Assembly: GCF_006345805.1 (NCBI RefSeq)
Contig: NC_043005.1
Location: forward strand, 98,828,001-98,892,000
Length of the DNA stretch: 64,000 nt
DNA from: Octopus sinensis
Lineage: Eukaryota
Direction of reading: 5' to 3'
Part shown: positions 13,156-62,939 of the stretch, one piece after another
Numbering within the stretch: position 1 is the first letter of the stretch
How the letters are laid out: the number at the start of each line of letters is the position of its first letter
Position numbers and translations under genes: made by a program
The notes under the pieces: model-generated
What the model saw: the letters and a program-made list of their open reading frames with translations, nothing else
What the model was told of the DNA's origin: nothing
Database searches by the model: none

Positions 13156-13311
13156 ATATATATATACCGGAGTAAGCTTCATATATACCGGAGTAAGCTT
13201 CATAAATGTGAAACAAGGTGGAAAAAAGAGTACTCAAATACCAGAGTTTGAGTAATATGCCTTATTTAATATTAAACAGCTTTTGTTATATTTCTGCTGC
13301 TTTTAAATAAG

Positions 13312-24095: not shown

Positions 24096-24187
24096 CAAAA
24101 TTTAGATTCAGATGAATATGGTACTTAAGTTAAAGGCACCAGAATTTTGTATGGTATTATCCATATAAATCAAATTGGGTGATTATA

Positions 24188-24487
24188 ATCAAAATAAGCA
24201 ACATGTATATCCAAGGTAGAGTAGTACAGTTGTTTCATGCTACTTCATTTTATTAAACACTGTAAGTATTATATCAGTTTTAAAATGTCGAGCAATCTTC
24301 AGCCACATATAGAATTTTCCAATCAAACGCACAATGCACATTGTCTGTTTGATTGGAAAATTCTATAAGTGGCTGAAGATTGCTCGACATTTTAAAACTG
24401 ATGTAATACTTACAGTGTTTAATAAAATGAAGTAGCATGAAACAATTGTACTACTCTACCTTGGATATACATGTTGCTTATTTTGAT
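24188..24487. mobile_element. 300-bp near-perfect palindrome made of two inverted PLE pLTR copies
   Basis: Arms are reverse-complementary about a centre at 24337/24338 (acaatg-ca-cattgt). The right arm is homologous to the pLTR at 5250-5380. Confidence 0.88.
24368..24455 (+). ncRNA. Type I hammerhead ribozyme (mirror copy on - strand at 24220-24307)
   Basis: agtgg-CTGAAGA-[t tgct...agca t]-GAAA-c aatt g-TA-ctact. Confidence 0.75.
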
Positions 24488-25144
24488 ATATATAGTTCAC
24501 GGATGAGATCCCAAGATTCTCTGTATACAAGACACTTAGTTAGTGCTCAGAAGATTCAAACTTAGACTCCGAAGTCTTTATGGGGCATCATTCCGCAAGG
24601 TAAAGAAAGGCTATAAGAGGGATCAAGTTGAGCAGGTATAGAGGCAATTATGTAGATAAACAGATTAGATTATAGAGGCTCGTCTCATTCTATATTAAAT
24701 GCATCCATATGGCTGCATATTGTGATGAACTAAATCCACCAACAGTATTATGAATCACTGAGCCCCCAGAAACGGCTGTTGGGTTTATAACACCTTTCTT
24801 CCTTCTCTTTTATTTTCTCTGTCATTGGACTCTGTGTAATTTGGAACTATTAATATAAATATCTCTATATTTATACATAAAAATTCATCATCTGAAAGCT
24901 TTCACCTTTTATTTTCTTGTGTTTTGCATGTATATATATATAGATTCATGTTTTCTATTTGATGTATTTAATATATGTAATATATTTGATATGTCTGATT
25001 TGTTTATCTGCATAATTGCTTATGTGTGTGTGTGCATGCGTGCATGCGTGCATATATATATGAATATATACACATTGTATGTATATGTACATATCTATAT
25101 ATATTTGTGTGTGTGTATATATATATTTATTTATAAGTATATAT

Positions 25145-27714: not shown

Positions 27715-28712
27715 CCTTGACATCCTTCCGACTCACACACACACACACTGCCTTAACAATGAATATACTTACTCTTAAGTGTGTTTCAGATGATATTTTG
27801 CAGTGTGTACCATAGTTTGTGTAGCAGTTAAGTGTCAGCTAAATTTATCCCAGCCATGATTCAATCCTTGGTTTCAATTCTTTTTTTTATTTACATCTCC
27901 ATTGAAGGTGGGACCAGAAGTGAAATTACATTTTCCCTTGTCCACTTTTTGTCCCTATCAAATATTATGTCCCCCTTCCTCACATCACCACCATCATCAT
28001 CATCATTTAATGGCCACTTTTCCATTCTTACTTGGGTCAGATGGAATCTGTTAAGGCAGATTGCCCCATGACCAGACATGGTTTTCATGGAGGATTGGAA
28101 ATGAATGACACAGCTTATATGACAGTGGCACTCTTTTGCAACTATCGCATGATGTCAAAACAAGGAGATGCCTCTCTCACACCTTCACACACATGTTCGC
28201 ATATGTGCGCAGGTACACACTCACACACATGTGATGGACTATTTTCAGTTTCCATCTAGCAAATCCATTCACAAGGCTTTGGTTTTCACAAATAATAATT
28301 TTGTTGCTTTAGATGGTGATTGAACCTTCCCAAAAGAAAATTTATAGGCAGAGTGTAAACATTTTACCTTTGGCGATAATGTATACAATGAGTTCAGAGG
28401 TTTATCTAAAACATGGATAGGTAACACTGACCTGTATTCTATATGAATCCACATTAATCTTTCCATGTAAGAAATCACTTTAACACCATATCTAGGGGTG
28501 AGAAACCTTAGGAAATAAGACATCTTGGCCTGCAGCAGTGCTGAAAATATGCAAAACTTAGCTGAATAATTGATGTCTTTCTCTGGTTTAAACTGTTCCT
28601 TAAGCTTTTGTCAATTTTTGTGAAGCAACGATGACCACCTTCTGTGCTAGGATCTATGTTGTTTTTATTACTTCTCTTGTCAATGTCTTTTCTTTTTTCT
28701 TTTTATCGCCAG

Positions 28713-28799
28713 GATTGTTTAGCCAGTGGCAGATTACAAACTGCAGCATCCTATTTGATCATTTTACAAAACTTGGAGAAGCCATCTGTCTCACGTCAG
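28713..28799 (+). CDS. RIC1: RIC1 (RAB6A-GEF complex partner 1) internal coding exon A, phase 0-0, DCLASGRLQTAASYLIILQNLEKPSVSRQ
   Basis: Polypyrimidine tract and AG at 28711-28712, donor cag|GTGAGT at 28800, 87 nt. The peptide matches the recalled RIC1 domain motif 'TAASYLIILQN.E.P.VSRQ'. Confidence 0.93.
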
Positions 28800-29759
28800 G
28801 TGAGTTCTATTTTCCTTTTCCCTTTTTAAATTCTTCTTTTATATTCTTCTCTTCTCTGAAATGCAGATGATTATGATATCCCTGATAGAACTCAACAGCA
28901 ACATGTTTGAATTTTATTTCCTTTAAATTCCTGACATTTATTTCTCTAATTTTTTCTAAATTGACTGCACTGTTTATTTTTTATATTTTCCTTTTTACCT
29001 TCCTTTTTTTTTACCCAAAGATTTATTTTAACTGCTATTATTATTGGTTGTTTATGCTTTCTGTAATTTTTAAGCAGACTTGATGAAGTTTATTCTTTCT
29101 TGGATAGGATGCTAGTCTATTGCAGATTAACTTCCTCTGACTGATGAACTAGTTTTAATATTTACCAAACAAATTAACCTCCTGTAAAAGATGGAAGACA
29201 AATACCTGCTATTACTTATAGTGTTATATTCTATAGGATACTGGATTATCAACAGTCATACCTTCATGTCTTCCAGTAAAACTTCACAAAATAAGATATA
29301 AATGGACTTTCGCTACAGAACACTAGTCTATCGTTGGATTAACCTTTGAACATGAACCAATAGTATTGAATTCTACCAATCATCGTTGGGAGGCCATTTA
29401 CATACATTATGCAAGAAGATGTATGAGAAACATATCAAAGCAACAAGTCTTCCTAATTCTAAATCTGTACCAGTTTGAAACTTCATGTGAAATTGTTAAA
29501 TCAGTCAATCAATATTTGAGAATAATCTTGGAAAATTTTGAGAGAACAATAAATCTGCGACATCAGTGGAAACAAGGAGACAGCTACAGGCTGTGTTTCT
29601 CAGTTGTGAAAAACAATAAAGTTGGTGCTGATTCTCCAACAAGATCTATTGTATGTAATATTATTGGATATAATGTAACAGCTGGACAATATTGAATAGC
29701 TAATGAGTTTAAGGTGTCGGAATACTTACATGGTTAGGAGTTCAATCTTTACCGCAGAT

Positions 29760-30032
29760 GGCCGATGCCAGTGCCGCCCTGGCTGGCTTCCATGCCAGTG
29801 GCACGTAAAAAGCACCAACTGATCGTGGCCGTTGCCAGCCTCGCCTGGCACGTAAAAAGCACCCTCTGCACTCATGGAGTGGTTGGCGTTAGGAAGGGCA
29901 TCCAGCTGTAGAGACACTGCCAGATCAGACTGGAGCCTGGTGCAGCCTCCTGGCTTCCCAGACCCTGGTCGAACCGTCCAACCCATGCTAGCATGGAAAA
30001 CGGATGTTAAACGATGATGATGATGATGATGA
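29760..30032 (+). mobile_element. SINE family A (other + copies at about 33900-34140, 34365-34540, 53460-53642, 54365-54518, 56183-56356)
   Basis: gttggcgttaggaagggcatccagctgtaga...ccaacccatgctagcatggaaa..gttaaacgatgatgat. Confidence 0.85.
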
Positions 30033-30344
30033 TTATATTGTGCTCTTGAGCAAGTTACACTACTTAGCACATTCTGATTGATTTACATTAAGAAAGTTAA
30101 AGAATGACCCCACAGTTTAAAATTTACATTTGAGTAAAAGATGACCCCTTTTACATGAATATACTTACAAGGAAACCATATGGAAATCTTCATTAGTAGG
30201 TTTTTCAGTATAATATGTTGGTACAATTTCTTGTTTAAGAATGCAATACATTTCTAGCACCTTGTGTCACTCATCATCTACCTTGTATTTCTTATGGTAT
30301 TCACCTTCCTTCCTCTTGGACCCACATCACGCATTCTATTCTTT

Positions 30345-30709
30345 TTTATTCTTTTTTTGTTTCAGTCATTTGACTGTGGCCATGCTGGAGCACCGCCTTT
30401 AGTCGAACAAATCGACCCTAGTACTTATTCTATCGGTCCCTTTTGCCGAACCGCTAAGTTATGGGGATGTGAACACACCAATATCGATTGTCAAGCGATG
30501 GTAAGGGGACAAACACAGACACACAAACACACACACACACACATACGGCAGGCTTCTTTCAGTTTCTGTCTACCAAATCCACTCACAGGGCTTTGGTTGG
30601 CCCGAGGCTATAGTTGAAGACACTTGCCCAAGGTGCCACGCAGTGGGACTGAACTCAGAACCATGTGGTTGATAAGCAAGCTATTTACCACACAGCCACT
30701 CCTGCACCT
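30345..30709 (-). mobile_element. SINE family B, inverted (partial copies also at about 55690-55890 -, 57072-57213 -, 61995-62152 +)
   Basis: Reverse complement of the family B sequence. Confidence 0.85.
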
Positions 30710-33700
30710 ATAGCTATTTGTCGACTTCCTTTGTCACAAAATCAGGTATACTTAAAACTAATCCACATACTACTGAAGAAGGACTTGATATATTTCTCAT
30801 CAGTGTGTGATCTGTTTCGAGCATGCTTTTGGATTTCCTGCAGCATTGAAGAAGCATGTCTTCTAGAGGACATTGACATGCATGATCAAACAAGTGATGA
30901 CACTGGTTTCTTGATAGAAATAACAGTGGCTTCACGAAACAATGTCGTTAGAGTTTATAGATCTACACCTGGTTAATAAAAGAAACTCACAATATTCTTC
31001 TCATTTATCAGTTATCAACAGCAAACAGTGCTGGTTCTCATCTTTTAGGGATCAGATCTCTCAGCCGTAGTGAAGAATGGAGTCTGCCAGTGTTTAGAAT
31101 GCTTGCATCTTTATATGACATTTGAGCACACTTTGAGTTTATAATCAGAGTTCAGAAGATGACACAAGCTGTCTCTTTATTGGGCTGGCCAGTTAGTTGG
31201 TAAGGAAGGTCTCTTGCACCACTTACACTTTGAATGTCAGCTGATGGGACTTTGAATCTGACTGCATTCTCTTTCTCTGCTTGATTCAATTCAATGTCTC
31301 CCCCTTTATATCCGGTATGATCTGGTGATCAATCGTGAATGGACTCAGTAGAGCAACATTGTTAATATCTGTGTTTGCTTCAATGGATTCTCAGAACACT
31401 AGTAATTAATTACATAATTAATGAGGAGTGACAAAGATACTCAATCCTGCTGGACACAAGTTTTTAGCACAGATATTTGTCTCTCCTTTCTATTTGATCT
31501 GACTTTGGTTAGTTGGCTGGAATAATAAAGACTTTATCAGGTTGAATAGTTTCAGTGGTAAACCTATTTGCTCTCATGATATTGTACAGTGACTAACAGT
31601 GCATGCAGTAGAATGTAATTACACAGTCTATAAAGGCAATGACTGTTGTAAAGATCATTTCTATTCCTATAACCATCAATGCATGAACATTCTGATTCAT
31701 TCATCCATGAAAATGAAACATACATTAATGATACCTTTAAATACATTAATTAAAACATGTTAAACTAATATTTTAACATGACCCTATTGAGCAAAAGCAC
31801 TTGCTGTTTACTGTAGGTGGTAATGAAAGTAGTTGGTAGGGGGTGCATCTCTGCCCTCCCTTTCTTTATTTCTACTTCGATGTAAATCATTGCTTCAGGA
31901 ATAGTTAAACAAACGGTCTGCTGGTATTTCTAGTTCTGGTCATTTATAACAGAACAGACTTTGCAACATGTTCTTCCAATTTTAAGAATTTTATGGAATT
32001 TAGCTGCTACATTAAAAAAGGGTCAAACAATGTTGTAAGTTCCTTTACTATAGCTGTGTATGTGTAGTTGGATATGTATGTACGTATGTACGTACATATG
32101 TAGTTGGATGTGTGTAGATGACTGTGTATCAAAAAATGGATGAATGGATTGTATGTGTAAGTTCCTTTACTGGTTTAAGATTATACACAATTTTGTGAAT
32201 GTATGTATTTCTGTGATTGTGTGTGTATATATGTTTGCATTTATATGTAGTTAGGCATGTAGTGTGTGTATTGATATCTAGCTGAGCATCTAGTACCTCT
32301 GTTTGTATTTCTGCATGTAGTGTGTATGTCTTTACAGCTGAACATATTAGTGTGTTTAGAAGGTTGAATATATGGATGTAAAATTGTAATTTTACTCTGT
32401 ATATGTGACTGTATATATGTTAGAAATATTTGGGGTCTTGTTTGCATATATATGCATAATGTGTGCATAATTGTGCATTGGTATGCTTTTGTGTATACCT
32501 TTTTACATGTACATAGTTTTATGTGCATTTGCATATCTGTGCCTGATACACATCTTTGTATGGATGGGTATAATATCTATGTTTGCTTGTATGGGATTCC
32601 GTTGTATGTCTTTCTTTCTCTGTGTGTTAGGGCTTATATCTATGTGTAAATATTGTGAATTATTATTTTTTTTAATTACATTTATGCCAAACATACACAG
32701 ATAACATTTCTATAAGTTAATCCTCACCAGTTCCAACAAACAATCAACTTTGGTCACTTCTTTCTAGAGAATCAGTATTTTCCTTTTATTTTTCATTTCT
32801 TGCCAAACATTTCTGTCTATTGATGGAACATCATCATCATCTCTCTCTCTCTCTTTCTCTCTCACACATACACAAACACACACATGTATGCACATGCACA
32901 CACTCCCCCCTCTCTCTCTTCTTGATACAAGAGAACTGTGTTCAAAGTTTGGTTTATTTTAAAATCAAATCCAATATAGTCTAAAAAATACAAAATCTAT
33001 ATCTATAAATATTACATTTCATAATTTTTTTTTGTTTTATTGTTTCATTGAGGTTTTGAAAAATCAATTTTTATTTTTTTAATTCTTTGATATATTCTCT
33101 TTTTAGTTCTTTTGTCTATTCACTTTGTTTACAAAATCATATTAATTATAAAATTATAGAATTGGCTTGATAATGGAAGTGATGGTAGGGGAAGCTGTAG
33201 AATTGTAAAATTGAATCTATTACCATTGTAAAAAGTTTTTTTTTAGGTAAGATAAAATTTGCATAATAATGATGATGATGGTGATGATCAATTGATTATC
33301 ATTATGATGATAAGAATGATATTGATGTTAAGGGTGTTTATGAAAATAATACTGGTGTTGATGATTATACTGGTGGCACTGATGATGATGATGATGAGGT
33401 TGATCGTGCACTGACTTGATCAGCACCATCTGTCATGTTTCTGTTCAGCCTCTGAGCCTCACAGCAGAGCTTGACTCAATGTGGTGTCATCATTCGTGAC
33501 TATCTGTGCATTGGTGTATTCCAGAGGCAGCCTCCAGATCCACTGTGAATTCTTTCAGCTTCCACCCATTGTCGTGCCATTATAGTGCTCACCACTTTAC
33601 ATGCCATGTTGCCCTTAATTAAATCATAAAGCATAGCCTAGATTCTGCGGGCTTCCCTTTCCAGCTTGAGCCAGCAGGGCTAGTCTAAGTGGATGGTAAA

Positions 33701-34155
33701 AGGCCTGAGGGTATGACAGTTTTCCTGTTCTGTGGCTGTAGGCCCCTCATCTGGGATGCTACATGCTGTAACACCTTCTCCAGTGGCAACTTGGTGTGTT
33801 CAGCTAGCTACCAGTCCAAGCTCTGCTGCTCATCAGGCTAAGAAAGGCAAACTTTGAAAGTATCTGTCACTTTCTGACATGTTTATAGTTGAGTCACTCT
33901 GACTGGCTCCTGTGTCGGTGGCACATAAAAGGCTGATGCCAGTGCCGCCTGATTGACTCCTGTGCCGGTGGCACGTAAGAAGCACCCACTACACTCTCAG
34001 AGTGGTTGGTGTTAGGAAGGGCATCCAGCTGTAGAAACATTACCAGATCAGATTGGAGCCTGGTGTGGCCTCCTGGCCTGCCAGTCCCCAGTCAAACCCT
34101 TCAACCCATGCCAGCATGGAAAATGGACATTAAATGATGGTGATTTTTTATATAT

Positions 34156-34236
<81 letters not shown>

Positions 34237-36532
34237 CTATATATATATATATATATATAGCTACATATATAGATACACATACACACACACATATATATCC
34301 CAAAAGTCACCACACACACACACACATATATATGTTAGTCTTGGAAGTTACTTGCCAACTTTACTAGTGCTGGTGACACACACAAAACAAAGCACCCAAT
34401 ACACACTGCAGGTTGGCATTAGGAAGGACATCCAGCCATGGAAACCATATCAAAGCTGACATGGAACACAAGGTAGCGCTGTGGCTCATCAGATTCTGTC
34501 AAACCATCCAGCATGGAAAACGGATGTTAGATAATGGTGATACAGAGTAGCTTCAGCTTTCTGAATTGTTACTCTGAGTTTCATGCTTCTTCTTATTTGA
34601 AAAATAAAAATTAGAATAGCAAAGTAGAGCCATATGTCAACAAAAAGTACTTGAAAATATGCCAATATATGATTGGCCACCAATATAATACCAGAAATAC
34701 ACTACAATTCAACATATATAATTGAGAGTGCAGTGACAGGGATGGAGAAGCAGCTCCAGAAAAATGACATCTTAAAATCAATAATATATTATAAAAATTA
34801 AATATATCAAAATATTTGAAATAAAAAAAAAAATGGAAGAAATTTTCCAGGGTATTGTGAATCCAATGAACGGGGAAAAGACCTGCTAGCCTGTAGAAAA
34901 CTGAAGCTTTAATAAATAACAACGACAATGATGATGAACAACGGAACTGTCTGCAGCAATGAATTCGGATTTTCTGCTCAAAATTGCAAGATTGCAATAA
35001 AATGTCATATTTCTCACAAATGCATCAATCACAACTTCTGGAACATTAGACATTGCTAATATTGCTGGTAAGCTGGGAAATGCTATTTAGCTGCCAGTGG
35101 GTCTGATCCAGAATAAATATCATCAAAGGCATTCCAGCTTTATCATTGTTTTTTAGTCAAGTATATTGTATTTCCTCATCTTAAGATAGGAGAATGTGGT
35201 TTGAGGGAGATATGACTGTTATTTATTGCAGGATCAATGAATAACTATGAGGTGGTGTCAAAAAGTTCCCAGACTTGTTCTGTAGTGTGCCAACAAATGG
35301 CAGCACACAGTTGTATGCACAATGAGAGCTAGCAGTGACCTTCATGAGGCAGTGTGCTGAGTGACATCACTGTGTTTATTTGGCAAGTTGTGAAATTGGT
35401 GTCTTTGTGATCACATGTTTGCTGTTGTCTGCAATTTTGTCATGGATGGGAAATTGGAACAAAGAGCCAACGTGAAATTTCTGTTAAACATGGGAAGTCT
35501 ACTATAGAGACTTTGAACATGCTTCAGCAAGCTTATGACAATGAGGCAATAGGTTGTATGCAATGTTTTGAGTGGCATAGGCACTTGAAAAATAGAAGAC
35601 TGTCCCTGGAAGTTGATGAGCAATCTGGAAGACCTGCCATGAGCATCACCTGTGGAAATGGGGAGAAAATTCATCAGCTTGTGCATGAAGATTGTCGAAG
35701 GACAATCAACAATATTGCTGATGTTGTCGGTCTGTCATATGGGTCCATGCTGGCAATCCTAACGCCTGAATTGAACATGCACTGTGTCTCTGCCAAGTTT
35801 GTCCCCTGCCAGCTGACCACTGAGCAGAAAGAATATCATGTCAAAGTCTGTCAAGATCTCTGTCAGAGTGCCACTGATGACCAATCCTTCATGATCATCA
35901 CTGGTGACGAGAATTGAGTCTACAGGTACAGCCCTGAGATGAAGCAGTCATCCCAATAGAAGAGCCTTTCATCTCCATGACCGAAGAAGGCATGACAGAG
36001 CTACAGGTCAATTGAGAGCATGCTCATCATTTTTTTCAAAATCCATGGTATTGTGCATCAAGAGTTCATCTCCCAGGGTCAGACTGTTAATTGAGAGTTC
36101 TACTGTGACATTTTGAAGTGTTTGAGGGAGGACATTCGGTGAAAGCAACTGGATCTGTAGAGCGCAAAGAATCGAATTCTTCATGACAACAATGCACCCT
36201 GTTACTGAGCTCGCCTCACTCATGAATTTCTCACCAAAAACAACATGGTATTGCTTCTTCACCTGCCCTATTCACCAGATTTAGCACCTGTGAACTTCCA
36301 TCTCTTCCCCAAGATGAAAAGGCAGCTCAAAGTTCACCATTTTAGCACCCTTGTCAGGATCCAGAGTGAATTGCAGAAGGTTCTTGACTTGCTTATGGAA
36401 AATGACTTCCAGGATGGATTCCAAAAGTGGCAGGAACGCTGGGACCAGTATATTGCTTTGCAAGGTGACTATTTCAAAGGAGATGATGTTAAAACTTTGG
36501 TAAATAAGCTACTTTGTATTAAGCATAACTAG

Positions 36533-37022
36533 GAGTAAAGATTTTTGCCAACATAACATGGCAGTCCTGATTTAGGATGAATGTTGCTGTCATTTAGCCC
36601 CAGGAGACATCGTCTCCAGCTGGCTATACGACATGATCTGTATCCTTATATTTTCGAACAAGGGAACCTAGCACCCCCACTCAGCTCAAAACAATATCTG
36701 TGTATCGCGATTTCCAGGTTATTTCTCTTCATCAGCACAGAATAATGGATCAGCTAGAGGTAGCGCTGACAAAGGGAAATAACCCGGAAATTGTGATACA
36801 CAGATATTGCTTTGAGCTGAGTGGGGGTGCTAGATTCCCTTGTTTGAAAATATAAGGACACAGATCATGTCGTATAGCCAGCTGGTGACGATGTCTCCTG
36901 GGGCTAAATTACAGCAACATTCATTCTAAACCAGGACTGCCATGTTATGTTGGCAAAAATCTTTACTCCAAAGTACTGTTGCTGAATATCTCTCATTGTG
37001 AGATTTAAAAATAGTAATTTTC
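36533..37022. mobile_element. Fold-back pLTR element with two hammerhead cores, inserted into a mariner, 13-bp TSD
   Basis: Inverted repeat 36532-36969 with arms of about 205 bp. Flanked by taagcataactag (36520-32) and taaacataactag (37023-35). Confidence 0.85.
36697..36741 (-). ncRNA. Type I hammerhead ribozyme (decayed mirror copy on + strand at about 36763-36804)
   Basis: Minus strand: tctgtg-CTGATGA-a gag aaataa cct g-GAAA-tcgcga-TA-cacaga. 6-bp stem I and palindromic stem III. The + copy has a better stem II (ggg aaataa ccc) but CTGACAA in the core. Confidence 0.72.
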
Positions 37023-37843
37023 TAAACATAACTAGTCTGGGAACTTTTTGGTACTGCCTCATATGTAGAAGTTACCGAGCTGGGTTTAGTAGGTGCTACC
37101 ATGAGTCTGTTTATTTGGAGCTGATGTCGTCATTGTTGTAATGTCAGAGTACTTATGTATGAGGGGACGGAGGGAGAAGTAGTTAACTGGGATCTAAAGC
37201 AGTAGGATGAGATGACAGAGGTTTGAGACATACAGACAAATGCTGTATGCCTGAAAAGCTTCCAAGCTCTGTTGATAACCAGGTGAAACATTAAATAATG
37301 CAGATTATGAGAAATATAAACAACTGGTTCAAACAGAGAATACTTCTATCTGCCTCTTGTCTTTCCTTTACTTTTCTGTTGCTATTTTGTGTAACTATCA
37401 TATATAGATATCTGTGGAAAAGCTGAGAGAGATTGTTGTTTTGCAACACAGTAATGTCCAAGGTAATTTCCATTGGCTTAAGTTGGATGACACTTCTCAC
37501 TTTCAAGCTTTTTCATCATATTCTTACATCAATAACAAAAACTGTTTTTCAATAATAAGCAAAGAAATTCTTGACCAACTGGCATTATTGGGAGGAATGT
37601 GGTAGACTAGAGGACCCAGTCACAGTTAGCAGACTTTAAATATAAAAGGAAAAAAGACATATAGTATATGTGACTTGATATTTAGAGGGAGTATAAATAG
37701 TATGTGTGACTATGAACATCTTTAGAGTATGTAATTACGGACTGATATATGTATATTGGTGTGTGTGTGTGTGTGTGTGTGTATACATATATATAGCACG
37801 GAAAACGGACGTTAAACAATGGTGATGATAATATATATATAAA

Positions 37844-38073
37844 AGGCGGCGAGCTAGCAGAACCGTTAGCACGCCGGGCGAAATGCGTAGCCGTATTTTG
37901 TCTGCCGTTACGTTCTGAGTTCAAATTCCACCGAGGTCGACTTTGCCTTTCATCATTTCGGGGTCAATAAATTAAGTACCAGTTACACACTGGGGTCGAT
38001 GTAATTGACTTAATCCGTTTGTCTGTCCTTGTTTGTCCGCTCTATGTTTAGCCCCTTGTGGGTAGTAAAGAAA
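37844..38073 (+). mobile_element. SINE family C
   Basis: Collinear with 2298-2528. Confidence 0.85.
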
Positions 38074-39880
38074 CAGATATATATATATCATTGACTCATA
38101 TGTTTATAATTGGTGTAGTAGACTATTCTTCAAATAAAAAAACCACTGTGTTTTAATGTCTCAAATATGCTTAAGCTGCCTTATAAGTTTGCTGCGCACA
38201 CTGTGGAATAGTATGTCTGGTTTAAAACCATCAGTAAACTCTTAGAAAAACGGAAAATAATAGCAAAGTATAGGAAAATTCTAGCAATGGTGCAAGTTGA
38301 AACCAAAGTAAATTGAATTTAAAGAAAAGCTGTTGAAGTTATTTACAATCTTTTTGTACGTTCATTTTTGTTTTGTTTTTATTTTTGTGTCCTTCAAATC
38401 CCTGAAATGACAAAAAAAAAAAAAAAATTAACAAAATAAATAAAAATAAAACAAAACAAAAAAAATTATTTATTGCTTTTTAGTTTTATTTTTCTGTGAG
38501 GATTTATTCTTTTATTTTCTGATAAATTATTGTCTGCTTAAAAATAGTGGAAAATGTGATTTATAGCCAAATTATTAAGACGTCAAATTGCCTGGAAATG
38601 ATGGGGAGAAAAGTCAGGTGATTCTATCTGCACTCACTGAAGTTAAAGCATTTTCAATTCGTTTATTCTCTGTAGCTTTCTGGCTGGATGGCTTTTCTTT
38701 TAGCTGTGTTGGGGTATTAGGACACTGCTGCATAAGATATTACTCTGATGTCGTTAGGTCTGTAGCCAAAAGAGTAAATAGTTTGCATAAATCTCTTCCA
38801 CATCACACTTGTCTGACACATCAAAATAACATTAGTTTCCCCTTATTTAGTTTTTCTTCCATTATTTTTTATCTTTTCCTTTTTTGTGAGCATTAAATTA
38901 TTTGTAAGACACAAATATATGAAAATAAAAATACACTTGCAGTTTTATATTGATTTCTCTTTGGCTCAGCTAAGAACCCCTCTTTTTTTTTTTTTGTTTT
39001 TTTCTATGCGAAGTGTTATAGTTGAGATAATTGCTTGGTTGTTAAATATTTTATCAACCCTTAGAGGGAGATTTAACCCCAGCATAGTTGAACCTAAAAA
39101 AAATTACAGCATCAAACACTGTAAATAATAAAAAAAATATCTAATTTTTCTGTCTGTCTGTTAGCCATTATTGCTGCTATGGTGAGTTAATAATGATGTG
39201 GGGTACAGAATATGTGAAAATGCATCAATAAATGACAAAGATCGGATACTTTTAGAATGACTTGACATTCCATTGTTACTTTGCCATTCTTACATTCCAT
39301 TGTCAGCTGTGTTTTCCTGAAACTCCTCTATTTCTCTTTACTTCACATCTGCTGTTGATATTATTATTAGTATAACCGTTCTGTGACACGAATCACAGAA
39401 AGGCATGAAAGCATCGGTGTCTTTGCAAGCAGATAATTAATGATCATCAACAAACATACTCCACTGCAAAAAGAAAAAAAATCTCCAGGACTCTCGTATT
39501 ACTTATGTTAGCAAGAGCAACTGAGATGCGCTAACATGCTACCAAAATTCACGATATACTAAGACCGTTTGCATAAAAACTTTCTCTAAAAATACACACT
39601 CAAATACAGAGGAGCAGAATTTCTTCAGAAAGTAAGTTGAAGAAATGGATTTCTCTTAGTTTACCCCATCACCCATTCTATCACTTCCCTTTCTATCGCA
39701 CTTCATAGATTGATTTATCCTGACATAAAGACTTTGATGTTGCTTGAATTTCAACATAAAATGTGAAACCATTGTGTCATCAGTAACTATTACTGCTGTT
39801 CTCAAGCCTTTGCTGCTTCTTCTTCTTCTTCTTCTTCACCACCACGTGTGTGTGTGTATGTATATATATATATATATATT

Positions 39881-40453
39881 GTGAAGGTGTGTGGCCTAGT
39901 GGTTAGGCTCTTGCACTCACGATTGCTAGATTGTGGTTTCATTTCCCTGACTGGAGGGTACATTGTGTTCTTGAGCAAAAGAAAAAAACATTTCATTTCA
40001 CATTGCTCCAGTCCCCCTTTCGATCAAGGGGGGATATTGGTCAGCTTGCCTTGCCAGCAGAGTGGTGTCTTATCTGAAGGCTAAAACAATACAAAAAACA
40101 TTGTGGCCAGAGATATGTAACAATATCTGATAGTCTGGTTGGTCATGTGAGTGTGCGATATATATATATATATATATTGTGAAGGTGTGTGGCCTAGTGG
40201 TTAGGCTCTTGCACTCACGATTGCTAGATTGTGGTTTCATTTCCCTGACTGGAGGGTACATTGTGTTCTTGAGCAAAAGAAAAAAACATTTCATTTCACA
40301 TTGCTCCAGTCCCCCTTTCGATCAAGGGGGGATATTGGTCAGCTTGCCTTGCCAGCAGAGTGGTGTCTTATCTGAAGGCTAAAACAATACAAAAAACATT
40401 GTGGCCAGAGATATGTAACAATATCTGATAGTCTGGTTGGTCATGTGAGTGTG

Positions 40454-40456
<3 letters not shown>
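39881..40456 (+). repeat. Tandem duplication of a SINE (two identical 278-bp units, period 298)
   Basis: 39881-40158 equals 40179-40456, joined by (TA)n. Confidence 0.92.
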
Positions 40457-40495
<39 letters not shown>

Positions 40496-40539
40496 TGCAT
40501 TTATGCATATATATCTATGAATATATATATATATATTTC

Positions 40540-40738
40540 AATATGTGACTGTGTGCGTATCGTTGGCGATTTTCTTTCTCCATCTTCCCTTCGTTGGACC
40601 TTTCCTTTTTCTGTGTTTCTAATGAAGAGCTCTGCTCGAAATGTTAAATCCTTCTTTCTTTCCTTTCCTGAGCGTCCAGTAACACTATACTTGTTCCATG
40701 TCCTTGCATTGTTGTGTTTTCTCTTTGTTCATGTTTTG
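40540..40738 (+). mobile_element. Solo PLE pLTR-like fragment with a minimal, decayed hammerhead at about 40615-40650
   Basis: gttt-CTAATGA-a-gagc tct gctc-GAAA-tgt-ta-aat, adjacent to (TA)n. Confidence 0.6.
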
Positions 40739-41215
40739 AATTAATCATGCATTGAGATTTTGGTGATGTGATTGTATGCTTTTCGAATGATATTTTAGGG
40801 TAGATGTGAGAAGCCAGATCTTACTAGTTTGACAAGCAGGTAGAATATTTGGGCTGGATGTGTGTGGTTTAAATGCTAAAGGGTTAATAGGTTGTCTGAC
40901 TGATTGACAAAGTCTCATTCATCAATGCATTACAGTTTCTGATGTAAATGTGTTGTGTCCTCTCTACTTTCCTATTCTACCACTGCTGCAACAGCCTCTG
41001 CTTCTCTGAACTAGTTGCATATCACCTCCTCCCAATTTATTTTTCTTGGGGGTCACTCCTGCTGTATCTCACCTATTAATCACCACACTAACCATTTCAT
41101 TTAATCCCCTCTCCCCTGAATATCACGCCTCTGGAATTCTATCCTACTTTAGTTTTCTTCTTGATATCAGTTTATAGGTGTTCCATCTGAATACCAATTA
41201 TATTGACCTTTCTAA

Positions 41216-41444
41216 GGCGGCAAGCTAGCAGACATGTTAGCGCGCCGGGCGAAATGCTTAGCGGTATTTCGTCTGCTGCTACGTTCTGAGTTCAAATTCC
41301 GCCGAGGTCGACTTTGCCTTTCATCCTTTCAGGGTCAATTAAATAAGTACCAGTTATGCACTGGGGTCAATGTAATCAACTTAATCCCTTTGTCTGTCCT
41401 TGTTTGTCCCCTCTATGTTTAGCCCCTTGTGGGCAATAAAGAAA
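41216..41444 (+). mobile_element. SINE family C with target-site duplication
   Basis: Family sequence flanked by tatattgacctttc on both sides (about 41199-41212 and 41447-41460). Confidence 0.87.
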
Positions 41445-43096
41445 TATATATTGACCTTTCCAGTCTCAGAGGTTATTCAAAGGTCATGAGTGCTGCTCCT
41501 CTTCCAGTTGGAGTTATAATAAAATGTATTGTCTGTACAAAGAAGTTTGAAGACAGAATGTTGAGTCTTTCGAGTGGTTAATGTTAAAATGGCTGTCATT
41601 GTGATGCTCCCTGGGTCCACCCCATATCACACAAAACATCTAAACTGTTCCTCTACATATTCCATATATCCTCTGTAAATCTGATGTGGTTTCATCATGA
41701 TGTGTAATGACAAATCAGATATTGTTGTACTTGACTGTGTCTACGTTGTCAAACACCTACTACAATAAATCAGGATATTCTGAATTTGAAGACCCATTCA
41801 ACCCATAGTAACAATAAAAATTTGGTTCAAAAATGAAAATTTAAAAGAAAATTGCTACAAGGAATCGAATATCAGGTTTCACTGAATTGAAGCATTCCTA
41901 GAATCAAAAGAATTTACTGGAACCAAAGAAAACATGTGTGGATTTTTTTTTTCTGTCACAAGGACATGGTGATTGAATAACTCTCCACATTTTATTTTGT
42001 TTGATTTTTTATTGGAATCACATCTCAGATGCTTCATTTTCTCTTCTCCAATACTTGATTACCGTACTTCAAAAATCACATAAAGGCACCTGTCTCCTAG
42101 CAGAAATGTCAAAGAGTCTTATTTTTGCTGTGAGACATCCATAATTCTGTTTTGTAAAAAAAAAAATTTTTTTTCCCTCCTTTTAAGTCTCTTTCATTTA
42201 ACTTTGCCTTTGAAGATTTAACATGATAGAGAACTGCATTTTTCAAGTTTCATTCTTCAGAAAACATTTCCAACATATCTAAACTACATAATTTTCATTT
42301 CACAACAACATTTGTTTGTTGTTTGATTACATTGACAATTTAGAAAATTGATGTTTCCAAAGTATTTTTTTTCCATTTTATAACAGTAACAAGGTGTCTG
42401 ATATGTTGTCAGTAACTTTTGTTGATATGTGATCAGATAACATCACACTATTATAATTGACCATTTATTATTAGAGCTAAGCTCTATAAGTATGAGTAAC
42501 ACATGGACTTTAATTAATTACTCCACTGTCTAAACTGATCAAGTGCTTGTCTAATCATAAATAATCCATATCTTTTACTAAGACTGATGGGAAATATTCA
42601 GGATGATTGCCATGTACTAGATTGATGCTGACCAAATTGCCAGCTTTTGTATGATTCAATATCTTCTGTATATGCATTTGTCTGTCTGTCTGTCTGTTTG
42701 CCTCTCCATCTCATATGCACGCTACCCCTCCCCTCATTGTCTTTTGTGTGTATGTATGCACCTGTAAACTACCTCTTACGCACACATACAACCACACACA
42801 CATGCATCCATCTGCTAGGTCAGTTCGAGAAGGATGTGTAAAGCTTCAGCATCTCTTTCGTTTTGCTATTCTCAAACCTGTATTTGGAAGTCTTTAAAAA
42901 TGTGAATTCCATCAAATAAAGTTTTCTGGTTGGTGGATGCCTCTGAGAAGAAATATTGTTTGTAAATGTGAACCTGCTTCCTTAGCTGTTATCACATCAC
43001 TGGAGTTTGGAATATATTGAGAAAGTAGACTGCAAAACAAAGTGACCACATCTGTCTACCACTTTCCTTCTGACTCTGTCACTTATTGCATTATAT

Positions 43097-43545
43097 CATC
43101 ATCATCATCATCATTGTCATTTAACGTCCGCTTTCCATGCTAGCATGGGTTGGACAATTTGACTGAGATCTGGCGAACCAGAATCCAATCAGATCTGGCA
43201 GAGTTTCTACAGCTGGATGCCCTTCCTAATGCCAACCACTCCGAGAGTGTAGTGGGTGCTTTCATGTGCCACCGGCCCAAGGGCCAGTCAGGTGGTACTG
43301 GTAACGGCCATGCTCAAATGGTGCTTTTTATGTGCCACCTGCGCAGTAGCCAGTCCAGCAGCACTGGCAACGACCTTGCTCAAATGTTTTTTCACGTACC
43401 ACCAACACAAGTGCTAGTAGGTGATGATCACGCTCGGAATGGTGTTTTTAACGTGCCATCGACCCAGAGGCCAGCTTGTTGCTCTGGCCTCGATGTCTCT
43501 CGTATGGTTCTCTCAGTGCTCCACTAGTACAGATGCCAGTCATCA
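43097..43545 (-). mobile_element. SINE family A, long copy with internal subrepeats (another - copy at 56875-57068)
   Basis: Family A 3' end plus repeated tttt(c/a)(c/t)gtgccacc modules. Confidence 0.8.
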
Positions 43546-45348
43546 AATTTGACTATAGAGCATTTGATTTATTTAGAAAATATTAAATGCTGGTGTAGCT
43601 AGGTTTCTAGGTTTGTCTATATGTTACTCATAACCTTTTGATTGGTGACATCCAAAGTAGGCAGGCTCTCCCCAGACACAATAAAATACATATTTAATGT
43701 TATCTTAAAACTATTTGGAGAATAATAGAGGAATATGTAAGTCAGATCATCAAAGTTTGATGTCTTTCAGGTGCAATGTGCATTCAAAACTGCATGCTTG
43801 GAATTAGATCTCCTACAGCATAAAAACAGCCTCAGTCATCTGCTGTAAAATTGACTATAGGGGGGTGAGAAAAATTATATAACATATCGTTTGGTATATA
43901 TATATATGCATGTGAGTGTGTGTAGTAGACTTGTTCACAGGTCTGTTATTCTGGCGTTTCTATAGCAATCTTCTGTTTCTTTCGATTAGTGAAAATGTGT
44001 CCAGACCACTAGACTAGCTTAAATATATTACAGTACTCTGCTGAGTGCTTCATCTTTGGATCATTACTTGACAAATACATACACACAATAAGAATATATG
44101 TTTTGTATAAGTTGTGTCTGAATTAAAAAAAGAAGAAACAAAACAGAAGTAAATGTGTTGGGAAGGTTGTATGAATATTTTCTCTCCTATTATTACGTTT
44201 AATACAGATGTTTACAACTATTCAGTATCATACTGAATCTGATGTTTACAGGAAATTTAGGATTGGGTGAAATTGGTGCAGTTCAGTATTTTGGTGATTC
44301 TTGAGAAAAGTGAATCCTGCCGGATAACCAAGATAGGGCCAATATGTACATTGATATTCCATGTGTTTGTATATACGTACCTGTATTTGTCTCTGTTAAT
44401 ACTAACTTGTCTATTGTTTTTACAGTTATCATCACTGAAGTATTTAATCTCTGAACAATTCTATTTCTTTGCACAAATAAATATATATTTATTTAATAAG
44501 TAATTTAGTAAGGTCAATAACTGTGAAAGTTATGTCCAGTGAGGGTATCCATTTTTTGTCTCCCTTATTTTCCTTCCTCATCTCTTTCCTCTTCTCCCTC
44601 ACATACCTCTCTCCCTCCTATCTCTTCTTTGTCTTTTTCTGTTCCACTTGTATCGCATCTTTGGTCACTCTATTGATTCTCTCATCCCTTCCTCCTATCT
44701 CTGTTCCTCCCCATCTTTCTTTTCTCATTTTCTATTCTATATTATTTCCTTATTTTTCACATTTTCTTCCCCATCTCTCTTTTACATTTCTCCCATTTCA
44801 ACCACCACCACCACCACTACATTTCATCTAATACCCCAGCATGTCTATCACTTCCACCACATTCTAACAGTTCCACCCTTATTGTTCTTGAACATGAAAA
44901 GTGTTTTCACTTCTGACTTCATGAAATTTCCCTAATGTCTTCCTCTGTGATCAATTATGAGGTGAAACTGGTTTACAATCAATCTTATTGATAAGTCCCT
45001 CTGTATTAGTGATTCAAAGACTAAGATGTATGGCATTGTCCTTTCATTCCAAGACCACCCAATCTTGATTCATGATGCTTGAATAATTGGCAATATGAAC
45101 TAACTTAAATGTTATGTTGCAGCCAGTGCATCTAGTTTGGAATATTCTTTCAGTTGCCAGTTGGTGCATATCAAAGGCTTTTTTTTTTGTCTTCTGCTCT
45201 CTCCTTTTCACTACTTTATCCCCATCTGTCTTTCGTGGGTTGGATTGTTCAACAGAATTCAATAAATTGGAGGATTATGCCATATTCCAATGTCAATTTT
45301 GGCATGTTTTGTGTATATGAATACCCTTCCTTTTTTTTTTCTTTTTTT

Positions 45349-45575
45349 CTTTACTGCCCACAAGGGGCTACACACAGAGGGGACAAACAAAGACAGACAA
45401 ACGGATTAAGTCAATTATATCGACCCCAGTGCGTAACTGGTACTTATTTAATTGACCCCGAAAGGATGAAAGGCAAAGTCGACCTCGGCGGAATTTGAAC
45501 TCAGAACATAGTGGCAGATGAAATACTACTAAGAATTTCGCCCGGCTTGCTAACGTTTCTGCCAGCTCGCTGCCT
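45349..45575 (-). mobile_element. SINE family C, inverted, with TSD
   Basis: Reverse complement of family C, tatgaatacccttcct repeated on both flanks. Confidence 0.87.
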
Positions 45576-46669
45576 TATGAATACCCTTCCTAACACCAAC
45601 CACATTACAAAGTTTGCTGGGTGTTTTTTTTTGTGACACTAGCACTAGAGGGGTCACCTTGTAACTTGTACAAAACTAAGGGCTTAAACTGGCTTCTATA
45701 GCAGAAGAGAGTGTGGTGATTTTTAGTGGGGTAATGAGGGAGTTTGGTGATGAGAGGACCAGGTTTAAGGTTGAATGAGTAATAAAGCAGGCACTATTAG
45801 AGGAGATGATTATGGAAGGGTTAAATAAGGGATTAGTGTCAAAAGTTAATGAGATGGGGAGGGATACAATTTCAAAAATGATTGTGGGTTGTGTAGGGTG
45901 GCTCTAGGGCAATCCTACATTATAAGAGCAAATATAGTTGGGAGATGTGAGGGGAAAGGAGATCAAGAAAGGGAAGTTGATGAGGGTGGCAAAGAATATT
46001 GAAGGAAAGAGAGCTGTGGAGATCATGGGTAGAGAGATGAGAGGGTATTATGGGGGGAGGCAAGAAGAAGCAGAGAAGCTAGGAGAGTGAAATGGGGAAG
46101 AGGACAAGGAAGCAGTGGTGTGTGTGGGGGTGGTGGTGGTGGTGGGAGAGTGCTGTGAGAGTAGTGAAGGAAACAGAGGTTGAAGGGTACTGTGGAGGTA
46201 GTGATGGGGGTGGGGTAGAAGAGAGGGTGACTACAGACAAAGTTGGGGAGATTGTGTTGGGATAATTACAAATATTGGTACGGGGGGGGGTATGGGTGAA
46301 TACAATGAGAGCACCCTAGAAGTTTAAGGGCAGTTAGTGAGGTGTTGGATGGCAATAGAAGTGACCCATATATATGTGTGTGTAGGTGTGAGTGTGTGTG
46401 TGCATGCGTGATGTCTGCCGTGTGTCTTCTATTTCTTGCTGTTGGCTTAAATCCATTCTCACCTCTTTCTTTCTCTCTCTCTCTCCCCTTCCACTATCTC
46501 TCTCTCTCTCCCTCTCCCTTCCACTATCTCTCTCTCTCTCCCCTTTTTCTCCTTTCCCTCCAATACATATCTTGGTTTATTCTCCTGGAGTAAAGGTAGC
46601 TTTGTAGGAGAATGTGGAGTGGGGGTGATTTCGTAGAGTGAAGGTGTATACTTTCAAGTTCCATGTTTA

Positions 46670-46850
46670 ATTATTATTGTCATCATTATCATAACCACCT
46701 TCATCAACATTATCACTGCCTTCATCATCATCATCATCATCATCATCAGCAGCAGCACAATCATCATCACTACCACCACCATTATCCTCTTCCTTATTAC
46801 TACCATCATCACCATCATTGTCAACAGCACCCCTATCACCAGTGCCATCT
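46670..46850. repeat. (CAT/CAC)n low-complexity tract just upstream of RIC1 exon B
   Basis: Directly visible. Explains the poly-His and poly-Asp ORFs. Confidence 0.9.
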
Positions 46851-46881
46851 TTCATACCCTTATTCTTCTTCCTTCTCACAG

Positions 46882-46966
46882 CATGCCACACTCCTTCTGG
46901 ATGCTGCCCTCGAGAAGAGCCAGTGGGATGTTGCCAGAGATTTGATTCGCTTCTTGAAAGCAATAG
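46882..46966 (+). CDS. RIC1: RIC1 coding exon B, phase 0-1, HATLLLDAALEKSQWDVARDLIRFLKAI
   Basis: Acceptor ttccttctcacAG at 46880-46881, donor ataG|GTGAGA at 46967. Continues in frame from exon A and matches the RIC1 motif 'HATLL...AL....W......IRFLKAI'. Confidence 0.93.
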
Positions 46967-47679
46967 GTGAGATTTATTACTTTTTTTTCTTTCTTGCTTT
47001 TATTTTCCCATTAAAAAGGAAAAAGAAAAAAAAAAATGAACAGACTTTCTTAACCAGTTTTAATTAAAATAAAGCGATGAGATGGTGTAAACTGGGATTG
47101 CATAGACCAGTTCACATCTCTTAGGTCCATCACATACCTGTGTAATTAGCCCTGCTGCTTTCTGTTTTCTATCTTTCCCATTTGTGTTGGTCAATAACTA
47201 TGAAAGCACCAACACTGATTTGAAAGTTCAAGTTGATGGACGTTGGTCAGCTTTCTTTGTTGTCATTTCTGTAAATCAATATTATTTCCAAGTCTGTGAG
47301 TTGTTAAAATGGAAGTCTGCTGTTGGAATTATGGCAAAAGTTAAGTAGGCTAAATTGCTATTGACAGCTCAGTATAAGCATATTATGAGTACATTATGTT
47401 TTCATGTACATATATTGGACAAATATGTGTTTATATGCAAAAACATGCATGTATATACATGTGTGTGTGTGTATTCACACACACACACACATGTGCATGC
47501 ATATCTACATACATGTTTATATATATGTACTTGTTGGGTATAGTGTATATTTAATATCTGCTTTCAAAGAAAAATTTTTGGTGACTTGTTCAATCTAGTT
47601 CTTGTCCGGCAGCCATCTCAAGTTGTGGAGATGGAAGATGTTGAGATGATGTTCTTGTCTCGAATAGATACTTGGATAT

Positions 47680-48659: not shown

Positions 48660-49557
48660 TGAGATGTATTCAAAAAGTATTCTGCTGAATCGAATGCCAC
48701 ATGGGCAAAATCCTGTGGGTCAGAGGTGACACCATCCTCTCTGCACATGCGTGAAAAGTTTCGTACTGGTAGACCTTGTTAGCTTCCAGCTGTTATAGAA
48801 TACAGACATGTTGTATGCACTTGCCAGATTTTTGATTTCATGCATGATGGTGGAATGCACTGAGCAGAGATATTGCATCAAGTTTTGCCAAAAGTTTGGT
48901 AATACTCATACTCAAACCCTCCAGAAGATTCAGCAGACCTTTGGTGATGATGCCATGGGCAAAACTCAGATCAAAGAGTGGCACAACCACTGTACCTCAG
49001 TGGAGAGTGAAGCATGCTTGGACAAGCTTCCTAAAAGTGAAAATGGGGAACTAATTGAGAAGGTTCGGCAAATCGTGATTATTGAAGAATGTCATGTAAT
49101 AATCCAGGAAAGTGGCAATAAGTACAGGATCAGTGCATTCCATTTTAACTGAGGATTGGTGCATGCAGAGAGTGTCAGCAAAAAAGTGAAGTCATATACT
49201 TTTTGAAAGCACCTCATAATCCAACTTTCTCAGTGAAGAACAGCACATCACATGTTTGAGAGGCTCCCTACTCTCCCGACTTGGCACCGTGTGACTTCTG
49301 GCTCTTCCTCAAACTGTAAACCATGATGAAAGGGAAGTGATTTGAGTCGTGAGAGGAAATTATGAGAAAAGTGAGGGTGGAGCTCTATAGCATTCCAGAG
49401 AAGGTTGTCCAGAGGTGTTACCAGCCATGGCAGAACTACGAGAAGTGTATGAACTCTCTAGGAGAGTATTTTGAAGGCGATTAACTAAAATTCTTGAAAT
49501 GTACAAAGTTGCTTTTTCCCTATGTCCAAAGGTCAGATACTTTTTGAATGCACCTCA
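48660..49557 (+). mobile_element. Mariner, internally deleted, with an extra internal TIR
   Basis: TIRs tgagatgtattcaaaaagtat / atactttttgaatgcacctca with TA flanks. Remnants EQRYCIKFCQKFG and PYSPDLAPCDFWLF. Confidence 0.9.
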
Positions 49558-52366: not shown

Positions 52367-52987
<621 letters not shown>

Positions 52988-53853
52988 TTATCAAAAACCC
53001 AATGAACACTGAAACCGTGAACATGCTTTACCAGCAAACCACCAGGAGTATACCATGTAACTTATTTACTGACAACAACAACAACAACAATAATAATAAT
53101 CCTTTCTACTGGAGGCACTAGGCCTCGAATTTGTGGGGAGGGGACTAGACAATTACATCAACCTCAGTGATCCACTGGCACTTAATTTATCAACCCTGAA
53201 AGAATGAAAGGCAAAGTTGACTTCAGCAGAATTTGAACTCAGAATGTAGCAGCAGATGAAATACCACTAAGTATTTCACCTGGCATGGTAACCATTCACC
53301 ACCTCACTGCCTTAACAATAATATATATGTGTGTGTTTGTAGCTGTGCTTGTTCCCCTATTATACATTAACTTTTCAACACCTGGCATAAAGCCACTCAC
53401 CTCCACCTTCGTCTCTTAAATTTTTCCCTCTTTGTATTAAGAGCCTTTCCCTTTTCTGTCTGGCACAAAGGAAGCACCCACTACACCCTGTGAAGTGGTT
53501 GGCATTAGGAAAGGCATCTAGCCACAGAAACCAGACCAAAGCTGATGTTGGAGCTCAATGCTGCCTTGTGGCTTGCCAGATCCTATCAAACCTTCCAACC
53601 CATGCCAGCATGGAAAATAGATGTTAAATGATGATGATGATGCTGTTTGATATTAGTGCGAGTGCACTCATATACACACAAGAATTTATGTATTAAAGTT
53701 TGTTCCATTTGATATTCAATATTGGTTTTCTATTTAGGGAATTTAATATTTAAAATCCTCACTATTAGAAAACATGGGAAATTTCATATGAATTACACTT
53801 CAATTTAATTGTGTGTTCAGGTTAACTGTTGTACATGTCTCCACTCCTCTTTC

Positions 53854-56357: not shown

Positions 56358-56590
56358 CAGGCATATGGCATAGTGATTAAGAGCGTGGGCTACTAACCCC
56401 AAGATTCTGAGTTCAATTCTAGGCAGTGCCCTGGATAATAATAATAATAACAACATTGAAAAATACCTTAGGAATGAGAACCCAGTTCCAAATTTCCCCA
56501 AGACACCTGATGAAGGCTGGGGAATATATCAACCGAAATGTGTTAACAAACAAGATGAGGACAAATATCCGTCAAATGTAAATAATGTAA
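56358..56590 (+). mobile_element. tRNA-derived SINE head fused via (AAT)n to a hammerhead-bearing pLTR-like tail
   Basis: A-box tggcatagtgat (56366-77), B-box gttcaattc (56411-19), then acac-CTGATGA-a ggctg...caacc-GAAA-t-gtgt (56503-56543). Confidence 0.68.
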
Positions 56591-60681: not shown

Positions 60682-61466
60682 AACTTCCTTTGGTAAAAAA
60701 CAAAGCTTTAGAGATGAGTGTGTTTATCGAGTAAGGAAATTCCTGTGATAAGTATTGCTGTGTAAAGCAACTGTGTGTTGAACTTTCTGGGTTAGAAACC
60801 TTATATCCAGATAGCACGCTCAGCTGGCACCATCATGTAAGAATAAGCAAATGCAGATTTTGGTAGGTAAAACACAAACTCTTAGATTAAGTCAATATTA
60901 TCTTGAAGAAGAGTAATTAGGATTGAAATGAGACAACAGGTGTGTGTGTGTATGTGTGTGTGTGCATGTATGTGTTGGTGTGTTAGTGAAGCATAACTGA
61001 AAATACAATGTTGTGTAAAATGAGACCCATTAAATTAATAATCTCCCAAACCAGAATATGTTTTAGGAATCCCTTGTTATGATTGTTTAGCCCTAGGTCA
61101 GTTTTAATCGAACCTATCTATGATCAAAGCTTTCCAGTCATGACCATACCATCTTATTTTTAAACAATGTACTCAGAACTACATTTTTTGTTCGAACTTT
61201 TTAAAGTTGTGGTTGGGGGAATTTAGCTACCATATAGAGATTTTTTTCCGTTTGTATGTATCCTGTGTGCTTTGGGAAGTCCCATTAAGGACTTCAAGCT
61301 ATATCACTGAATATCTAGCCTATCTCCCAAAATGCTGTTAAATTGTTTGTTCTAATAATTTTTCTTTAATTATAAAAAATATTTTGATAAGTTACCCTAA
61401 TTTATTATATTTTCAAATTTTGTTTTTTATTTATTTTTTGTCTTGTATTTTTTATTTTTTTACCAG

Positions 61467-61713
61467 ATCCCAGTGAAGTTGATTCATTACCTCCCGGTGG
61501 TGTGTTGACTCGCATGTCAAGTAACCCAATGTACAGTTCATCTTATCACAGTCCCCCTATTACCACAGAAAAGCCAGCCTACCCCATCCCTCATGTTCAA
61601 AGGAGTGCCAGTTTCTCTAGTTCTGAACTCTCAGCCACTGAAACAAACCGACTCAATGACAACACCAAAGTAACAAATAATCCTCAAGACTCCTCTTCTC
61701 TAACAAGCAAAAG
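61467..61713 (+). CDS. RIC1: Probable RIC1 coding exon C, phase 1-2, Ser/Pro/Thr-rich (DPSEVDSLPPGGVLTRMSSNPMY...SSSLTSK)
   Basis: Long T-rich tract and ccAG at 61465-61466, donor aag|GTAAAC at 61714. Open frame and phase-compatible with exon B (G|AT = Asp). RIC1 has a low-complexity S/P-rich segment at this position. Confidence 0.8.
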
Positions 61714-62937: not shown

Positions 62938-62939
62938 AA

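Follow-up and report, generated by a model that had tools for sequence, protein, structure and literature searches.

The window, the 64-kb stretch of DNA that was analysed as a whole, contains within an intron of RIC1 a decayed mariner interrupted by a hairpin-shaped insert of 490 bases with two decayed hammerhead-ribozyme motifs. The insertion is real, and its most probable reading, to which we assign a probability of about 0.7, is that a single insertion event united, head-to-head, two 5'-truncated ends from a high-copy repeat family that bears a hammerhead, only one of them with a tail; the enzymes responsible were likely the reverse transcriptase (RT) and endonuclease of a Penelope-like element (PLE). 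A PLE-type origin in itself is very probable, and given such an origin, priming at two nicks is the route that we favour with some reservation; membership of the PLEs is a purely structural assignment and is treated here as putative. The insert is likely an ordinary PLE end-fragment, of a pattern already described for that class, and was likely dead on arrival, unable to move again. What a first-pass annotation of the sequence had implied to be unusual appears, by this comparison, to be the documented PLE insertion unit.

Coordinates of the insert, its host mariner and the surrounding intron (positions in the window)
Feature	Position	Strand	Details
RIC1 intron, host of mariner and insert	28800..46881	+	GT..AG borders, 18 kb; bordering exons consecutive in homologous proteins
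Decayed mariner	35246..37063	+	TA-flanked at 35246-47 and 37062-63
Mariner left terminal inverted repeat (TIR)	35248..35275	+	28 nt, 24/28 identity to right TIR
Mariner transposase frame, broken	35442..36532	+	8 in-frame stops and a frameshift near the start
Left target-site duplication (TSD) copy	36520..36532	+	13-mer; single copy in uninterrupted mariner relatives
Left element end, inverted, tail-less, 5'-truncated	36533..36764	-	Arm and 28-nt spacer
Left minimal type I hammerhead motif	36697..36741	-	C3 at 36735, G12 at 36714, predicted cleavage after 36703
Head-to-head inversion junction	36762..36767	.	On a 6-nt palindrome; both copies start GCT
Right element end, 5'-truncated, up to inner family 3' end	36765..36969	+	
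Right hammerhead motif, broken	36766..36804	+	G8 to A, two loop-3 CpG decays, stem I 5' strand missing
One-sided tail, right only	36970..37022	+	53 nt, unpaired; between two family 3' ends
Right TSD copy	37023..37035	+	13-mer
Mariner right TIR	37034..37061	-	Intact; 2-nt overlap with right 13-mer

The host element is 1311 nt long after subtraction of the 503-nt net insertion, and it combines a TA target, TIRs of about 28 bp, a length of about 1.3 kb and a Mos1-like transposase. The transposase remnant matches Mos1 with an E value of 2.2e-29 and Pfam Transposase_1 with 2.3e-07, and its stop codon (36530-32) falls within the left 13-mer, the insert being placed between this codon and the right TIR of the dead mariner. 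The intron was located by tblastn, and three RIC1 exons were seen on the + strand (28704-28799, 46882-46971 and about 61460-61672), separated by introns of about 18 and 14 kb; a Pfam scan gave no matches in the 99 frames of the + strand that it covered, out of 113 picked from a total of 553. A second mariner fragment is present at 48799-49149 (Pfam HTH_48, E 5.7e-06), and the window also contains a near-perfect (98.8%) 330-nt tandem duplication at 39849-40475.

The insert is built from two inverted arms of 205 nt each (36532-36736 and 36765-36969), 93% alike and separated by a 28-nt spacer. The 14 mismatches between them comprise 12 transitions and 2 transversions, six in CpG context, and amount to a divergence of 6.8%. 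The spacer is element sequence from upstream of the hammerhead, and contigs of the family extend across it, reaching a depth of 71,087 at 36747 in run X1. Six-frame translation found no reading frame that stays open in the arms. The whole insert has a folding energy of about -363 kcal/mol on either strand, and the tail folds into a stem-loop (z -2.3; 7 of 200 shuffles equally good), the 96-nt stretch that contains it giving a z of -1.4. A repeat scan thus confirmed the first-pass description of 205-nt arms, a tail on the right only (53 nt) and flanking 13-mers inside the mariner.

The two 13-mers agree at 12 of 13 positions and no third site occurs in the window on either strand at up to one mismatch; the chance that a random 13-mer matches within one mismatch in a random 100-nt stretch is 0.0014. 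Data on the empty site and on the family come from contigs of four public runs (X1, X2, X5 and X11) aligned to 36000-37500 at 80% likeness. Loose-end contigs pass from 36532 directly into the mariner right TIR in three of the four runs (70 contigs in X2, 43 in X5 and 75 in X11, from the best 24 of 4161 loose-end rows), and joints jumping from about 36500 to 37023 were found in all four runs among the rows listed. Since these uninterrupted mariners have one 13-mer, the duplication arrived with the insert, and a TSD at this site is documented by empty sites in mariner relatives in three of the four runs. The pre-insertion site, which had been claimed to be reconstructable, therefore exists in sequenced copies. 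The duplication itself holds, and its 13 nt are best read as a maximum: the element may own 1 nt at the left junction and, at the right one, as many as 3 nt (TAA). The longest mariner pieces listed differ from the copy at 35246..37063 by about 15-19%, in a selection biased to diverged pieces. No contig bridging the insert junction by 31 letters on both sides was listed, an X2 contig extending 24 nt into the tail, and the X11 contigs do not cover the flank beyond 37121. That the mariner is older than the insert, as had been supposed, follows from nesting alone.

The sequence of the insert belongs to a high-copy family. Unique flank depth is 62 in X1, 52 in X2 and 9 in X5, and most arm bins exceed it by a factor in the thousands, although summed depth is not a copy number. 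The family has two discrete 3' ends, each recovered in all four runs among the rows listed: an inner one, with loose ends behind 36957 in 88, 117, 72 and 81 contigs and a consensus that tracks the window as far as about 36972 before agreement is lost, and an outer one, with loose ends behind 37025 in 123, 131, 79 and 100 contigs, past which the sequence is AT-rich (agreement 0.41-0.42) and contigs run into unrelated sequence. These two points, about 53 nt apart, are where the left and the right arm of the insert stop, and they bound the one-sided tail, which exceeds the published length. Towards the other side, mirrored summed depth drops 4.5 to 9-fold from the 3' end to the hammerhead in all four runs, which is what 5' truncation predicts, and the point of truncation varies among copies. 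At loose ends before 36593 (28-45 contigs in three runs, among the rows listed) the arm sequence has diverged further, which suggests a second subfamily.

Copies lying head-to-head with an adjacent inverted 5'-truncated copy recur in the family, and their junctions vary. Seven other fold-back joints, drawn from the best 15 of 1014 joints and the best 12 of 424 between-letter rows, have arm lengths of 96/113, 110/122, 133/121, 215/124, 228/143, 97/64 and 162/0, compared with 233/205 in the insert; joints at 80% likeness could stem from related repeats. No two of the seven share a position, and several have additional letters where the arms meet (among the rows listed). In one of the junctions observed, from 36693 to 36970, an inverted arm meets an arm that consists of the tail only; this junction was found on one contig at depths of 258, 630 and 30 in three of the four runs, about 4, 12 and 3 times unique flank.

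No description of the family was found in the publications searched. SINE motifs may point to a cephalopod-like host. The accessible portion of PMC13282606 reports 190 Penelope-like families in an octopus, with ribozymes unmentioned in that portion of its main text, and two 19-nt family motifs were absent from one of its supplement files (5 kb, methods and tables). An exact 22-nt arm pattern had 0 matches in metagenome, viral and prokaryote collections. Five loci in metagenomes that matched the hammerhead pattern were rejected as chance, showing no similarity beyond the 15-16 nt pattern.

The better-kept hammerhead motif, on the left, retains CUGAUGA, GAAA, the loop-3 palindrome AUCGCGAU, a 6-bp stem I and an AUA site, and its helix II is altered or weakened. 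It fits the min-HHR consensus in the supplement of PMC4209133, as far as that was available, except that helix II has 3 bp and that GAAA is preceded by an additional G; for a mismatch at the helix II base, the part of PMC7229834 consulted offers a precedent. A strict hammerhead descriptor, composed after the motif had been seen, matches twice in the window and in 0 of 100 dinucleotide shuffles, and the loop-3 palindrome has a self-duplex energy of -10.1 kcal/mol. Core letters are retained across the family, whose putative pLTR carries a minimal type I hammerhead core, stem I and a palindromic loop 3. At 36771 the family letter is G in 92-97% of depth in all four runs, so the earlier reading of the lesions as CpG decay is correct; their proposed distribution, one per copy, is not, as the right-hand copy (+ strand) contains both CTGACAA and TTGTGA.

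General models do not recognise the motif. Rfam gave 0 hammerhead matches at gathering over the whole window; relaxing the threshold to E values of 10 brought in only generic models for hairpins and snoRNAs, with no hammerhead family; its best match to the insert is a miRNA model below the gathering score. Unconstrained folding of four short stretches placed the hammerhead fold no better than shuffles (z -0.36 to 0.35), a failure that is expected for minimal motifs and gives no support. A cluster of loose ends at the predicted cleavage site is absent from the best 24 of 4161 rows. The arms reach 62 and 34 nt beyond the predicted hammerhead cut, and the template was therefore uncleaved there. 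In RIC1 pre-mRNA the insert is predicted to make a 205-bp duplex that would bury both motifs; with both motifs buried and the better-kept of the two antisense, cleavage is predicted not to occur. An intronic 205-bp duplex of this kind would be a candidate ADAR or small-RNA substrate.

These features correspond closely to the insertion unit of EN+ PLEs (Penelope/Poseidon, Neptune and Nematis; for example Pen2a_Av of Adineta vaga), for which the consulted parts of PMC3846280 and PMC8557442 describe a head-to-head inverted 5'-truncated copy, a tail at one end, a TSD, a junction palindrome and secondary insertion into another transposon. The one-sided tail beside the inverted 5'-truncated copy is given as 30-40 bp in PMC8557442, and is described likewise in the accessible part of PMC8969392, and inverted pLTRs have 8-10 bp TSDs and junction palindromes in PMC3846280. 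The insert differs in that it has no ORF between the repeats and in its dimensions (a tail of 53 nt against 30-40, a TSD of up to 13 nt against 8-10), and the latter count against a PLE origin. So does the lack of a partner in the metagenome, viral and prokaryote collections searched, in which no autonomous copy of the family ties the insert sequence to an RT/GIY-YIG ORF, and a further point on this side is that the arms contain no continuously open frame. The hammerheads resemble the minimal type I ribozymes of metazoan PLEs in their CUGANGAH core, G10.1 and GAAA-palindrome-UH, in their U-rich 5' and AU-rich 3' flanks and in their pairing on opposite strands 100-700 bp apart (PMC4209133, in the portion seen); they differ in the 3-bp helix II, in the extra G between C11.1 and G12 and in a longer stem I (6 bp), and the helix II, the extra G and the want of Rfam recognition are further points against PLE origin.

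The closest biochemical parallel is PAc, a Poseidon of Anolis carolinensis studied in vitro (PMC11167929, in the parts available), which shares two discrete 3' ends that bound the tail, an AT-rich target, a template that extends beyond the hammerhead cut and a stem-loop located where reverse transcription starts. The PAc ORF begins within the region of the pLTR and tail, which overlap it, whereas no open frame is evident in the insert. The same source reports that both strands are cleaved and extended in PLE retrotransposition, that the tail is bounded by two RT starts, that uncleaved RNA is the main template, and that two fixed 3' ends are unique to PLEs.

The anatomy of the insert is observed; the steps that may have produced it are modelled on the PAc biochemistry (PMC11167929, consulted in part). 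A PLE RT/GIY-YIG protein would nick each strand of the AT-rich target, at positions separated by 13 nt at most, and each nick would prime cDNA synthesis on element RNA, from the outer start with the tail included at the right nick and from the inner start without the tail at the left. Both cDNAs would halt early, 62 and 34 nt beyond the predicted hammerhead cut, and join through the 3 nt microhomology of the junction palindrome, with fill-in duplicating the target. The arms would then have decayed independently to their present 6.8% divergence. The stem-loop of the tail is a weak hint that it might position the RT starts.

Unlikely, in our estimate, is the other route within a PLE origin, self-priming, in which one cDNA snaps back at the junction palindrome and is then copied. 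It is the published proposal (PMC3846280, Discussion) and is favoured there for such junctions in the Penelope elements of Adineta, in the portion consulted, and both the position of the junction on a 6-nt palindrome and the arm lengths, which lie within 33 nt of each other in 5 of the 8 junctions seen among the rows listed, agree with it. A simple snap-back nevertheless fits less well because the tail is located on the arm with the shorter 5' reach. It would also need an extra template switch, since neither strand templates both spacer and tail: judging from the sequence, a strand that starts from the tail and ends at 36765 has no template for the 28-nt spacer, and one begun on the left has none for the tail. 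A different use of PLE machinery, very unlikely in our view, would turn the insert or a similar fold-back into a non-autonomous master, whose transcript is put back into the genome whole. The junction from 36693 to 36970, found on one contig with about 3-12 times the depth of the flank in three of four runs, speaks for this, but it differs from the insert's own junction, could also have become multi-copy when host DNA or a different transposon was duplicated, and stands beside junctions listed mostly at about 1-2 times flank depth; the arms of the insert, moreover, are 6.8% apart with independent CpG decay.

Sources outside the PLEs fare worse. Non-LTR retrozymes are also non-coding, hammerhead-bearing units of about 300 nt that are related to PLEs (PMC7229834; 10.64898/2026.07.22.740005, both in part), and their monomers are dispersed according to the latter. 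A source of this kind would be a tandem retrozyme, or a SINE, inserted through ordinary-LINE twin priming, and the lack of an open frame in the element agrees with it. Retrozymes are head-to-tail tandems, however, while the insert is a head-to-head inversion with tail and TSD; at this locus there is no head-to-tail hammerhead tandem, no poly(A) and no simple-repeat 3' end, and two fixed 3' ends are described as confined to PLEs in the available part of PMC11167929. We regard this source as highly improbable, and a retrozyme moved by a PLE protein would fall under the PLE explanation. Most improbable of all is a DNA transposon, either a MITE with fixed ends or a foldback element, whose likeness to a hammerhead would be fortuitous. 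MITEs are short, non-coding, high-copy elements with inverted repeats. The insert family is likewise short, non-coding, inverted-repeat and high-copy, with long arms, and yet neither its ends nor its interior are fixed, its inverted repeats stop short of the right end, leaving the 53-nt unpaired tail, and its TSD is long. A MITE identity was rejected, as neither fixed length and interior nor terminal inverted repeats were found; variable junctions and the 5' depth gradient of the family also oppose it, as do the retained core letters and the motif's occurrence in 0 of 100 shuffles. The first-pass preference for retrotransposition over a MITE is accordingly supported by variable inversion points, two family 3' ends and the depth gradient, and its proposed comparison of variable inversion points with fixed ends came out for the former, the seven other fold-back junctions all differing among the rows listed.

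The window also contains PLE RT/GIY-YIG remnants of other families. A 5'-truncated PLE ORF with a frameshift lies on the - strand at 11659-13261 (Pfam RVT_1, E 0.017; GIY-YIG, E 0.0009); it has no DNA similarity to the insert, and a search for its relatives in viral contigs gave 3 pattern matches, 0 of them confirmed. Downstream of it, near 11055-11015, a degenerate hammerhead-like motif was spotted by eye. The + strand frame at 3780-4235 has a weak GIY-YIG match (E 0.0029) and is likely another PLE 3' fragment. A second head-to-head fold-back (24184-24492) has 149-nt arms, 97% alike, a 2-nt spacer and one hammerhead motif per arm, and a single motif at 5266 (+) is related to these. A third fold-back, at 62365-62943, has arms of very unequal size and, at 62743 (+), a hammerhead motif whose loop 3 is nearly palindromic, and an older one (52453-52991; about 79% overall) has no hammerhead motif. 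No convincing duplication was found in a TSD search at these three fold-backs. An isolated hammerhead-like core on the + strand at 56507-56545 was matched by a loose pattern only.

As a single locus the insert is of minor weight, a clean case of a PLE insertion whose pattern is known and whose empty site can be proved. Such hairpins may be taken for MITEs or for miRNA precursors, the best Rfam match being a miRNA model below gathering. The available parts of PMC8557442 and PMC11167929 describe the origin of PLE inversions and tails as unresolved. A broader reading, which we hold to be distinctly doubtful, is that the insert family is a genome-scale record of PLE inversion formation, in which the tail stem-loop would set two RT starts, a PLE dimer would prime both nicks together, and some hairpins would serve as non-autonomous masters, a MITE-like, dsRNA-forming class derived from the ends of retrotransposons. 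Arms of matching length, differing by at most 33 nt in five of the eight junctions, are as expected if a PLE dimer primes both nicks together, and at least one multi-copy fold-back junction means that some hairpins may be masters that move as units. Two-nick priming and self-priming could be told apart by counts in a family of this kind, which combines a high copy number and numerous junctions with two sharp 3' ends.
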